Assembly (NCBI GenBank): GCA_964522845.1 | Contig: CAZFZQ010000002.1 | Location: 1-39,097 of the forward strand | Direction: 5' to 3' | DNA: 39,097 bases | From: an uncultured Gammaproteobacteria bacterium | Lineage (GTDB): Bacteria > Patescibacteriota > Patescibacteriia > GCA-002772895 | Shown: piece by piece, positions 18,486-23,044 of the stretch | How the letters are laid out: each line of letters starts with the position of its first letter | Position numbering within the stretch: the stretch's first letter is position 1 | Made by a program: the position numbers and the translations under genes | The notes under the pieces: generated by a model | Told to the model about the DNA's origin: nothing | The model's input: only the letters and a program-made list of their open reading frames with translations | The model's database searches: none

Positions 18486-19862
18486 ATGAAAAAAATATTA
18501 CAACAAATTCTCAAATATCTCGCGCGAAAAATTTTACAAAAATATAAGCCCGAGGTCATTGCCATCACCGGATCGGTGGGTAAGACCTCGGCCAAGGAAA
18601 CGATTCACACTGTTTTGATGAACACATTTTTAGTTCAACAGAATATTAAAAATTATAATAATGAATTGGGCGTGCCGCTTACGATTATCGGCGCGGAAGC
18701 GGCAGGAAAAAATATTTTCAAATGGCTCGGAGTATTTTTGAAAGCTGTTAAACTTTTGATGAGCGACCCCACTTCGCCCGTCCTCCGCACAAGGCTACGG
18801 AACGGCACAGCAAGGCTACGCGGGGCAAGCGCCAACTATCCAAAGGTTTTAATTTTGGAACTGGCCGTGGACAAGCCCGGCGACATGGATTATTTATTGG
18901 ATTTTGTGAAGCCCAGGATCGGAGTTTTGACGCGCATCGGACCAGTTCACTTGGAATTTTTCGGCACGCAAGAAAAGATTTTGCAAGAAAAATCAAAATT
19001 GATAAAAGCCTTGCCGCAAAACGGTTTTGCGGTTTTAAATTATGATTATAAAGATGTTTTGAGTTTGTGCGATATAACAAAAGCAAAGTGTATCACCTAT
19101 GGTTTTGACGAAGGCGCGGACGTGCGGGCGAAAAATATTTTATACGGCCGCGGGCCGGCCTCGACTGGCGCGAGTCCAGGCGGGCAGACGACTTTTACTC
19201 TGGAATACGGCGATAAAACATCGGCCGTGGTTCTTTTGCGCGCGGCTGGCAAACCGCAAATTTACGCTATATTGGCGGGTATTTGTTGCGGCATTGTGAA
19301 AGGAATGGATTTGGAAAAAATAAAAGAAGCGTTAAAAAGTTATGTGCCGCCAAAAGGCAGGGGCAATGTTTTAAAGGGTATAAAAAATACATTGATTATT
19401 GATGAAACTTACAATGCTTCGCCCCAAGCCGTGGAAGCGGCTCTGGAAAATTTGGCCCGTCTTTTTCCTCCCACCCTTGATAAGGGGGGGATAAGGGGGG
19501 GTAGAAGTGTCGCCGTCTTGGGCGACATGCTTGAACTCGGCCCCATTACACGCGACGCCCATCTATCGGTTGGAAAAAAAGCCGCGGAATTGGAATTGAA
19601 TTATCTTTTTACCGTAGGTTTGCGTGCTAAAGATATTGCCCGCGGTGCGCGCGAAGCCGGTATGATAAAGGATCGCATTTTTGAATTTTCCGACAACTTA
19701 TCTCTTGGCAAATTTTTGCAAGAAAAAATAGAAGAAGGGGATATTATTTTGGTCAAAGGTTCGCAAGGCGCGAGAATGGAAAAAGTTGTCAAAGAAATTA
19801 TGGCCGAGCCGGAGAGAGCCCATGAGCTTTTAGTAAGGCAAGATAAACAGTGGCAAGTATAA
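18486..19862 (+). CDS. murF: UDP-N-acetylmuramoyl-tripeptide--D-alanyl-D-alanine ligase
   Basis: ITGSVGKTS P-loop and Mur ligase middle and C-terminal motifs (DETYNASP, VKGSQGARME). Confidence 0.85.
   Translation: MKKILQQILKYLARKILQKYKPEVIAITGSVGKTSAKETIHTVLMNTFLVQQNIKNYNNELGVPLTIIGAEAAGKNIFKWLGVFLKAVKLLMSDPTSPVLRTRLRNGTARLRGASANYPKVLILELAVDKPGDMDYLLDFVKPRIGVLTRIGPVHLEFFGTQEKILQEKSKLIKALPQNGFAVLNYDYKDVLSLCDITKAKCITYGFDEGADVRAKNILYGRGPASTGASPGGQTTFTLEYGDKTSAVVLLRAAGKPQIYAILAGICCGIVKGMDLEKIKEALKSYVPPKGRGNVLKGIKNTLIIDETYNASPQAVEAALENLARLFPPTLDKGGIRGGRSVAVLGDMLELGPITRDAHLSVGKKAAELELNYLFTVGLRAKDIARGAREAGMIKDRIFEFSDNLSLGKFLQEKIEEGDIILVKGSQGARMEKVVKEIMAEPERAHELLVRQDKQWQV
18767..18830. repeat. Intragenic GC-rich element, family 1 (expanded copy)
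   Basis: CCCCACTTCGCC...AAGGCTACGG..AAGGCTACGCGGGGCAAGC. Encodes PTSPVLRTRLRNGTARLRGASA. Confidence 0.7.
19146..19190. repeat. Intragenic GC-rich element, family 2-like
   Basis: GCCGGCCTCGACTGGCGCGAGTCCAGGCGGGC. Encodes GRGPASTGASPGGQT. Confidence 0.5.
19467..19501. repeat. Intragenic G/C-tract element (CCTCCC...GGGGGGG family)
   Basis: CCTCCCACCCTTGATAAGGGGGGGATAAGGGGGGG. Encodes PPTLDKGGIRGG. Confidence 0.5.
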
Positions 19863-20801: not shown

Positions 20802-20831
20802 CATTCTCTCATTCGTACGAATGAGAGAATG
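20802..20831. promoter_or_regulatory. Perfect 30-bp palindrome just upstream of, and overlapping, the first ligase start region
   Basis: CATTCTCTCATTCGT|ACGAATGAGAGAATG. No T-run follows. Confidence 0.6.
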
Positions 20832-20846
20832 AGAAAGGGAGCTGGA

Positions 20847-21602
20847 ATGAAGCGGAATGAATTTTTTGGGCTTTTCAAATTCAAAAAAGAACTGGCCGGA
20901 TTTGTCGGGGTTGAACGAGAGCATTTTCTTGTCGCGCAAAATGGCGAGACGGTTCCGAGGTCAAAAGATTTTTTGAAGGCGATTGGCGATCCGCGCTGGA
21001 CATACGAGCTTTCCGCCTGCCAGGTTGAGTCAAGAACGCGGCCGCAGAAAGATTTGTCAGCCATAGAACTGGAACTTTTGGAAAACGATAATAATGGCTG
21101 CCTCGTTGCTCGGAATTTAAATCTGCGCCTCGCGAATTTGGAAGTCGCACCGAATGATATGCCTTTGGATGTTTATCCCTTGCCGCGATATTTGGAGATT
21201 GTGAGCCGAATCAGCAAAACGGAACTTTTGGCCGCCTGCCAGGTTACCGGCACGCATCTTCATTTGGGAGTAAGAAATATGGCGGAGGCGATCGCGCTCT
21301 ATAATAGTTTGATCCCGTGCTTGGAAAAATTGTGCGAACTGGGTGATCATTCCGCGGGCGAACGGCTGAAGAGATACAAAAGGATGGCGAAAAATTGGCT
21401 GCCGCCTGTTTATGGAGGCACGGAAGACTTTTACGAAACGGCGATAGAACAAGGATTCGCTGAAAATCCGAAGAATTGTTGGCACCTGATTCGTATCAGC
21501 GCCCATGGCACGGTGGAACTGCGGATGTTTGGAGTGACGGATAATTTGGATGAGATTATTCTCTGGATCGAATCTGTGAAGCGGAAAGGAGGCGCGAAAT
21601 GA
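20847..21602 (+). CDS. GCS2-family carboxylate-amine ligase (compact, about 251 aa; alternative start at 20829)
   Basis: GVEREHFLV, ELSACQVESRT, GTHLHLGV, WHLIRISAHGTVELRMFG. Confidence 0.75.
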   Translation: MKRNEFFGLFKFKKELAGFVGVEREHFLVAQNGETVPRSKDFLKAIGDPRWTYELSACQVESRTRPQKDLSAIELELLENDNNGCLVARNLNLRLANLEVAPNDMPLDVYPLPRYLEIVSRISKTELLAACQVTGTHLHLGVRNMAEAIALYNSLIPCLEKLCELGDHSAGERLKRYKRMAKNWLPPVYGGTEDFYETAIEQGFAENPKNCWHLIRISAHGTVELRMFGVTDNLDEIILWIESVKRKGGAK

Positions 21603-21697
21603 GCGACCAAAATCTAAAAAGCGAGACCAAGAAGACGAGCGAACGGCAAGAAAAGGAAATACGCGCGGCGTATATATGGCGCAAGCGGAAAAAATAA
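21599..21697 (+). CDS. Micro-ORF, 32 aa, highly basic (MSDQNLKSETKKTSERQEKEIRAAYIWRKRKK)
   Basis: AAAGGAGG lies 6 nt upstream. ATGA overlap with the upstream stop and TAATG overlap with the downstream start. Confidence 0.5.
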   Translation: MSDQNLKSETKKTSERQEKEIRAAYIWRKRKK

Positions 21698-22974
21698 TGG
21701 CTAGCCCGGAGAGATTTCAAAAAGACGGCACCAAACTGCCGGTCGGACTTGAATCGGAAGTGGCGATTTACAAGCTCGGACTCGCGCCGGAAAATTACGA
21801 GGCGCTAAGAGACGCGATTCTGCGGGATGCGTCCGGGTTCACGGATGTGGAGCTGGGCGCGGCGCAGATTGAGTTACGCACATCGCCGGTTGATATTCTG
21901 TCCGTCTCCGGATTTAATCATCTGGGCGAGGAATACCAAAGGAATTTCGCCCAAGTAAAGAAAGCGGCGGAAGCGCGCGGCGCGAAAATTTTGCGCTTCG
22001 GGTCGAATCCATATTTGCCGATTAGGAATACGCCGCGCACCAACAAACCCAAGTATCGGCTGGTTCCGGATTTCTATAATGAAAACCGGAGGAAAGATGC
22101 TGATACGGTAATCGGCCTGGGAAGGTGCAGGGTTGATATTGGCGATGCGGCGATTGTTTCCTTGTTCCAGTCGTTTCAAGTGAATATGGAGGCATCGTCG
22201 TTTGAAGATGCCATCCGTAAAATGAACATTTCTTTCGCCATCGCTCCGTACCTTTTGGGATTTTCCGCCAATTCGCGCTACCTCGGGGGCTTTGATTTGG
22301 AAATCCAGGATATGAGGATGATTTCTTGGGAAAAAAGCCACGATACGAGAATCCAGGATTTGCGCATGATCGCGTGGGAAAAAAGTTTTGATGTAAGAAC
22401 GAGAGAAGAAATCCGCGCCGGCCGGATGCTCCGCGTGGGACTTCCGGAGCGATACTTCATTGATATGGCTGATTATCTGGGGCGCGCCGGACAATTTCCG
22501 TTTATTCTGCATAATCCTAACGCTGCACTTGCAATTGCGATTGGTATGACTTGGCTTGATACGCGGGTAAAATTCATTCAGGATTCATTGGTAGTGGAAT
22601 TGCGCCTTTTGCCGACTCAGCCAACCATAGAAGAAGAATTATTGATTACGCTTTTCTATATTGGCAGAGTGCGCGACGCTATTTTGAGGGATGAACAATT
22701 GCTGCCGTTTGAATGTGTCCGCGAAAATCGCCTGGCGGCAATGCTTTACGGAATGCATCGGCCGATGTGGTTTTTGCGGGATGATGGTGCGTTGAAAAAA
22801 ATGCCGTATCGGATGGGCATGCGCTTGGAGATTGAAAGGGCGGAGCGGGGGTTGCGGGAGCTCGGACTTTTACGTTATTTTGATACGGAGCTCTTGGCTG
22901 AAAATTTTGTTCGCGGCACGCCGTCGGACAGATTGGCAAAAAAACTTGCACAAGGAGGCCGCAATGCGCGATAA
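21697..22974 (+). CDS. GCS2/glutamate-cysteine-ligase-like carboxylate-amine ligase (alternative start at 21676)
   Basis: GLESEVAIY, ELGAAQIELRTSP, FQVNMEA, GFSANSRYL, WLDTRVKF..VVELRLLP. Confidence 0.75.
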   Translation: MASPERFQKDGTKLPVGLESEVAIYKLGLAPENYEALRDAILRDASGFTDVELGAAQIELRTSPVDILSVSGFNHLGEEYQRNFAQVKKAAEARGAKILRFGSNPYLPIRNTPRTNKPKYRLVPDFYNENRRKDADTVIGLGRCRVDIGDAAIVSLFQSFQVNMEASSFEDAIRKMNISFAIAPYLLGFSANSRYLGGFDLEIQDMRMISWEKSHDTRIQDLRMIAWEKSFDVRTREEIRAGRMLRVGLPERYFIDMADYLGRAGQFPFILHNPNAALAIAIGMTWLDTRVKFIQDSLVVELRLLPTQPTIEEELLITLFYIGRVRDAILRDEQLLPFECVRENRLAAMLYGMHRPMWFLRDDGALKKMPYRMGMRLEIERAERGLRELGLLRYFDTELLAENFVRGTPSDRLAKKLAQGGRNAR

Positions 22975-23044
22975 AAGAAGAGAAAAACGGATAGAAATTT
23001 TTCGCGCCTTTAACGAATGGCTTGAAAAAAATAGAGCCAAATAG
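22964..23044 (+). CDS. Micro-ORF, 26 aa, highly basic (MRDKRREKRIEIFRAFNEWLEKNRAK)
   Basis: AAGGAGG lies 5 nt upstream. Overlaps the ligase end by 11 nt. A terminator follows. Confidence 0.5.
   Translation: MRDKRREKRIEIFRAFNEWLEKNRAK

Follow-up and report, generated by a model that had tools for sequence, protein, structure and literature searches.

The window, by which the whole analyzed stretch of 39,097 nucleotides is meant, carries on its plus strand a series of genes in the order rarA, class B PBP, murF, class I GATase, ligase 1, sORF1, ligase 2, GIY-YIG, yidC and others. The host genome is a MAG of 90 contigs that is 94% complete, has a size of 0.9 Mb and a GC content of 43.7%, and is A-rich and Lys-rich. 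The features around the two ligases are listed in Table 1. Ligase 1 was recognized by Pfam PF04107 with 27.8 bits and by TIGR02050 with E=1e-12, and ligase 2 by PF04107 with 37.3 bits at a cut-off of 21. The stop codon TGA of ligase 1 (21600-21602) is overlapped by the ATG at 21599, which results in ATGA at 21599-21602. A perfect 30-bp palindrome, detected as a BLAST self-match with the opposite strand, is located just 5' of ligase 1 at 20802-20831.

Table 1. Features of the region from ligase 1 to ligase 2, with positions in the window.
Feature	Position	Strand	Description
Ligase 1	20829..21602	+	GCS2/YbdK-type carboxylate-amine ligase, 257 aa (251 aa from ATG 20847)
Shine-Dalgarno sequence AAAGGAGG	21585..21592	+	6 nt 5' of ATG 21599
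sORF1	21599-21697	+	32 aa, ends CGG AAA AAA TAA
sORF1 codons 1-25	21599..21673	+	probable displaced true 5' end of ligase 2
ATA (Ile) codon	21659..21661	+	position of the family-invariant Met in the N-terminal helix
TATATATG	21671..21678	+	frame-break site; 2 extra nt, nominally AT 21674-21675
Ligase 2 body	21676..22974	+	GCS2/YbdK-type; 432 aa (ATG 21676) or 425 aa (ATG 21697)
A6 + TAA + TG	21689..21699	+	in the ligase frame (G)AA AAA ATA ATG = E-K-I-M

The letters at the junction between sORF1 and ligase 2 are as an earlier note on this DNA had given them, with CGG AAA AAA TAA at 21686-21697, an ATG that overlaps the stop codon and a ligase 2 frame at -1 relative to sORF1 (GCG GAA AAA ATA ATG). 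The A6 run occupies positions 21689-21694 and the TAA positions 21695-21697, and the last base of the TAA is the first base of the ATG at 21697-21699. The note had interpreted this arrangement either as a dnaX-like -1 frameshift site or, more simply, as a site of termination and reinitiation, with the two frames mechanistically tied in both cases. Absent from it is an earlier in-frame ATG of ligase 2 at position 21676. Reading of the ligase frame 5' of 21676 revealed no further start codon, and no good Shine-Dalgarno sequence was seen before ATG 21676 or ATG 21697. In the host genome, the A6-stop motif is no more frequent than chance. There are 29 copies of AAAAAATAA in the window and 428 in the 0.9-Mb genome when both strands are considered; AAAAAATAATG was counted 15 times in the genome, and 26 of the 721 genomic ORFs of at least 150 aa end with AAA AAA followed by a stop. 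The commonest codon of the genome is AAA (66.5 per 1000) and the commonest stop is TAA. ARAGORN identified 43 tRNAs in the genome including tRNA-Lys(CUU), but no tRNA-Lys(UUU), though it corresponds to the commonest codon; its gene is probably located in the unassembled part of the MAG.

Searching 5.8 billion proteins with ligase 2 yielded more than 100 homologues from Parcubacteria/Patescibacteria-type metagenomes. The ligase 2 body shares 45-67% identity with these proteins, which are about 460 aa long, and the closest intact homologue is at 67%. Excluding a near-identical 425-aa copy, full-length homologues comprise 431-485 aa; most of those sharing about 50% identity or more have 459-478 aa. 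Their extra length is mostly N-terminal, and this extension is missing from the 425/432-aa product of the window. Among 40 related genomes searched, no ligase 2 homologue was present besides the one in the window's own genome, which suggests a patchy, accessory distribution of this long GCS2 paralogue.

A genome-contig scan provided 2 related loci and a metagenome scan 38. In all 38 related loci covering the 5' end of ligase 2, the N-terminal motif and the ligase body are encoded in a single frame as one protein of about 460 aa, i.e. a peptide resembling sORF1 is fused to ligase 2. The earlier note had proposed to look in relatives either for the arrangement A6-TAA-TG or for such an in-frame fusion, and it is the fusion that was found. 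The relatives share the pattern E-x-E-M-x-x-[A/S]-F, followed by exactly 8 codons and then by x-x-x-[D/E]-R-F; the spacing between F/Y and x-x-x-[D/E]-R-F is exactly 8 codons in 30 of 30 non-redundant loci. Two homologues, P0013 and P0005, read ...QEKEMRAAF-REQTGRIL-AFPERF and ...QEKEMRSEY-RKQAREII-ASPERF at their N-termini. In the window the same elements are distributed over two frames, with ...QEKEIRAAY in the sORF1 frame (codons 17-25, 21647-21673; QEKEM-x-x-A-F in the family) and MAQAEKIM-ASPERF in the ligase frame. At the corresponding place A6-TAA-TG occurs in 0 of the 30 non-redundant relatives, an absence that the earlier note itself had named as grounds against its proposal, and (TA)3 likewise in 0 of 30. 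Runs of six or more A were detected in two of the 30, at other positions. Opposite the E-K-I-M of the window, the relatives harbor R-E-I-I, R-K-I-M, R-T-I-V and similar residues, which are encoded by different codons.

The region upstream of ligase 2 is also comparable. In relatives a ligase 1 gene is located directly 5' of ligase 2, and its stop codon overlaps the start of ligase 2 (by 1-11 nt) or abuts it, with a GGAGG-type site at the same distance as the Shine-Dalgarno sequence of the window. Since the perfect Shine-Dalgarno sequence and the ATGA overlap match this arrangement, ATG 21599 appears to be the orthologous start of ligase 2, and AAAGGAGG would represent its ancestral ribosome-binding site. 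The nearly invariant Met of the motif was considered as the real start codon of the family and was rejected, as the relatives possess starts led by a Shine-Dalgarno sequence 6-9 codons further upstream. A short (about 257 aa) and a long (about 460 aa) GCS2 paralogue form a conserved adjacent pair with overlapping stop and start codons on many Parcubacteria-type contigs (e.g. loci L004, L005, L007, L013 and L039), to which a class I GATase is sometimes adjoined.

The AF2 model of homologue P0013 (pLDDT 90.4, pTM 0.91) matches the YbdK structures 1tt4 and 1r8g with E=3e-12 and a target-normalised TM of 0.78-0.81; plant glutamate-cysteine ligase was matched as well. Based on the YbdK match, ligase 2 is predicted to be a YbdK-like carboxylate-amine ligase carrying extra helices at its termini. 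The family thus resembles the YbdK/GCS2 ligases in its PF04107 score above threshold and in the superposition of the homologue model at a TM of about 0.8, whereas its members are about 100 aa longer than YbdK and possess an additional helix at the N-terminus, a segment duplicated internally and a helix at the C-terminus; in Parcubacteria-type genomes they always adjoin a GCS2 paralogue of shorter length. The duplicated segment is encoded at 22303-22398 in the window (Q-D-M-R-M-I-S-W-E-K-S-H-D-T-R / I-Q-D-L-R-M-I-A-W-E-K-S-F-D). It is present in all homologues inspected and is thus an old feature of the family rather than a local event. In the P0013 model, residues 4-23 form a helix of high confidence and a short one covers P-E-R-F; confidence is low at residues 238-254. 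The sequence MAQAEKIM in the ligase frame of the window continues the N-terminal helix of the family, and the 32-aa remnant carries half of this helix alpha-1. Judged from the model, the break in the window would cut the long N-terminal helix in the middle.

The position of the break was determined by codon-by-codon comparison with the 30 loci. In the window, 8 codons and a further 2 nt lie between the two halves of the motif, and between TAT (21671-21673) and GCG (21679-21681) the five nucleotides ATATG are found in place of the single codon of the relatives. As the spacing in the relatives is always 8 codons, the 2 additional nt place the break inside TATATATG, about 15 nt 5' of the A-run. 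The simplest event at this site would be the insertion of TA (or AT). Alternative joins were scored against a family HMM that was built without the window sequence, and 200 controls with a shuffled sORF1 part were included. Joining the two frames by skipping TA gave 687.7 bits, and the -1 join at the A-run gave 679.5 bits, 8 bits less; starts at ATG 21676 and ATG 21697 scored 673.2 and 666.0 bits, respectively. The shuffled controls reached 675.8 +/- 1.3 bits with a maximum of 682.4. Adding the 25-codon part of sORF1 to the ligase body therefore contributed 14.5 bits (z=9.1 against the 200 shuffles). This ranking indicates that residues 1-25 of sORF1 are homologous to the N-terminus of the family and that the junction lies at the TA repeat, and not at the A-run where the earlier note had placed a -1 frameshift. 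The -1 join at the A-run also requires a one-residue insertion in the alignment and swaps six helix residues. In BLASTP, the N-terminal part of sORF1 aligned with P0013 with 7 of 10 residues identical and 10 of 10 positive, and hhalign, when run with the 32-aa peptide by itself against the family profile, gave nothing but a spurious internal match. Thus, sORF1 and ligase 2 correspond to consecutive, collinear parts of one protein of the relatives, and the gap between them is not a multiple of three. Homology and collinearity of the two parts, where the indel lies and how large it is, and the absence of conservation at the A-run all come directly out of these comparisons.

Taken together, ligase 2 is most readily explained as a single gene that starts at ATG 21599 and whose frame is broken by two extra bases in TATATATG, with the A-run and the stop codon being incidental (probability roughly 0.8). 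Its translation would start at the ATG led by the Shine-Dalgarno sequence, coupled to the stop of ligase 1 via ATGA as in the relatives. With the two extra bases in the TA repeat, codons 1-25 would no longer share a frame with the remainder of the gene, and the shifted frame would read seven more codons before it encounters its first stop, the TAA at 21695-21697. In the ligase frame, the letters of this stop belong to the codons ATA ATG and those of the A6 run to GAA AAA. The locus thus resembles other genes split by an indel in a repeat, in that adjacent ORFs in different frames form consecutive parts of one protein and the indel, not a multiple of three, is located in a short tandem repeat, (TA)3. 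It differs from the usual split gene in that only 25 codons are cut off, the catalytic body is undecayed and an in-frame AUG that overlaps the new stop could rescue a truncated enzyme.

The strong Shine-Dalgarno sequence of sORF1 and its stop/start overlaps at both ends, as well as its annotation as a 32-aa gene in a second assembly, would be in agreement with a genuine, selected gene for a small basic protein that is coupled to both ligases via ATGA and TAATG. However, sORF1 has no family match of its own, and none of the relatives contains a separate ORF at this place, as in all 38 loci the sequence belongs to ligase 2. Its first 25 residues represent the N-terminus of the relatives' ligase 2, and its basic tail IWRKRKK is an out-of-frame reading of MAQAEK(I). 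An independent sORF1 is therefore hardly credible.

The A-run was also compared with an established recoding site. Frameshifting in dnaX depends on A AAA AAG together with an upstream Shine-Dalgarno sequence and a downstream hairpin (PMC5389563). The site in the window resembles dnaX in having two Lys codons in an A-run and a downstream frame at -1, but its heptamer starts with G. The sORF1 frame gives G AAA AAA, which does not conform to the slippery pattern X XXY YYZ. On this heptamer, re-pairing in the A site would be perfect, whereas the P-site tRNA would face GAA; due to this mismatch, only the slip of a single tRNA with the stop codon in the A site fits. No stimulator similar to a Shine-Dalgarno sequence was found about 10-14 nt upstream, the 20 nt at 21669-21688 (CGTATATATGGCGCAAGCGG) containing neither GGAG nor AGGA. 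The 76 nt downstream (21695-21770) fold with -19.8 kcal/mol (z=-1.14), and 27 of 200 shuffled sequences fold as well; the sole local hairpin begins about 30 nt downstream of the A-run. Unlike in dnaX, the A-run site and the layout in two frames are not conserved among orthologues, and homology places the frame junction 15 nt 5' of the A-run. The two stimulators of the dnaX type are thus missing, and of the earlier interpretation the tie between the two frames persists, since they are fused in the relatives, but the role of the A-run as their junction or signal does not.

Full-length ligase 2 might nevertheless be produced by recoding, through a -1 slip of tRNA-Lys on A6 or through tRNA-Tyr shifting by +2, from UAU 21671-21673 to the overlapping UAU 21673-21675. 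Either shift would restore the frame with perfect P-site re-pairing, the +2 join would give exactly the spacing of the family, and the fully conserved body could also reflect that a full-length product is still being made. A stop codon following a slippery run favours low-level shifting, which likewise counts for recoding. Against this, all relatives are in frame and none of the 30 has either motif; the heptamer, the missing upstream element, the insignificant downstream fold and the lower score of the A-run join with its additional residue and six replaced helix residues, all described above, point in the same direction. At 16.9 per 1000, the codon AUA that follows UAU is not a rare one, and the genome has a tRNA-Ile(UAU), so that no pause is expected at UAU AUA; a hungry-codon rationale for a shift at this site was ruled out on these grounds. 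The loss of an otherwise invariant Met from the N-terminal helix, by which this part is apparently no longer selected, also argues against recoding, which is highly improbable as the source of full-length ligase 2. A single-tRNA -1 slip or a +2 shift of tRNA-Tyr is chemically feasible and may happen at background level.

All of the 59 aligned homologues have this Met, and a crude count gave 81 of 84. Its replacement by Ile at 21659-21661 is the sole loss among 34 family-invariant residues in the window and argues that the N-terminal segment is no longer under selection, indicating a loss of constraint that is real and not brand-new. The body of ligase 2 shows no decay. Of the 34 invariant residues the protein keeps 33, of the 49 near-invariant ones 47, and it lacks three conserved residues compared with 3.1 in the average member. 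The conservation of the body indicates that the catalytic core is either still under selection or only recently orphaned.

It was also considered that the extra bases are artefacts of assembly or consensus building and that the organism possesses TATATG and an intact ligase 2 of 457 aa. The window is drawn from a 90-contig MAG, and the well-conserved body and N-terminal motif are as expected for an intact gene. However, the same TATATATG, as well as an identical A6-TAATG, is present in a second assembly, ENA ERZ27284381, on a different contig of 54 kb that has two SNPs in 7278 bp relative to the window; the two assemblies may stem from related samples and are not fully independent. The replacement of Met by Ile in the same helix is a second lesion which an indel artefact leaves unexplained. 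In addition, a 2-nt insertion in a three-unit dinucleotide repeat is atypical as a short-read consensus error. Exact look-ups of ligase 1 and sORF1 retrieved the two known contigs and no others, and an intact allele is thus not on record. An assembly error is therefore unlikely, and the insertion of 2 nt is most likely real. A mixed population of (TA)2 and (TA)3 may exist at TATATATG. The two SNPs are located at 19085 (A/C) and 22319 (T/C), the latter changing Met to Thr in ligase 2.

For the frame-broken gene, translation may proceed as follows. Ribosomes that come from ligase 1 or load at AAAGGAGG would translate the 32-codon remnant and terminate at UAA. Part of them would reinitiate at AUG 21697, which overlaps this stop; a start at AUG 21676, which no Shine-Dalgarno sequence precedes, is less likely. 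Reinitiation would yield a ligase of 425 aa from which most of helix alpha-1 is missing; alternatively, the gene would be newly inactive. A truncated enzyme may thus be formed via reinitiation at UAAUG. The locus resembles other cases of overlap coupling (AUGA, UAAUG), as ATGA ties ligase 1 to ATG 21599 and TAATG (21695-21699) ties the remnant to Met 21697. In contrast to the conserved, ancestral ATGA junction, the TAATG occurs only in the window's genome, where it arises from ATA ATG read out of frame; it is the overlap between ligase 1 and ligase 2 alone that is conserved in relatives. Termination-reinitiation, the simpler reading of the earlier note, thus remains plausible as a present-day route, while the TAATG overlap appears to be an accident of the frameshift and not a design kept by selection. 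A functional bypass of the lesion, in which a low-level -1 or +2 shift supplies the full-length protein or the 32-aa remnant and the 425-aa core act in trans as a split GCS2 of a reduced CPR genome, is very unlikely.

A gene disrupted by a frameshift is an ordinary kind of lesion. With regard to annotation, the locus should be recorded as a single GCS2 ligase gene with a frameshift. A micro-protein entry for sORF1 is not warranted, nor is a listing of A6-TAA as a candidate recoding site. The comparison also defines the true start and the conserved N-terminal helix (E-x-E-M-x-x-A-F) of an uncharacterised Parcubacteria-type family of GCS2 ligases. An operon reading of the form ligase / micro-ORF / ligase / micro-ORF is undercut by the single-gene result. 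The second basic micro-ORF, at 22964-23044, encodes 26 aa, is led by a Shine-Dalgarno sequence (AAGGAGG upstream) and overlaps the stop codon of ligase 2. It was considered as a displaced C-terminal tail of ligase 2 and rejected, since no homology was detectable (HMM z=-0.35). The C-terminus of ligase 2 itself (region 22936-23044) lacks the conserved helix M-x-x-A-L-x-E-T-x-M-L of the family. In the window, 12 residues follow P-S-D-R-L compared with 25-27 in homologues, which makes this tail the shortest of 69.
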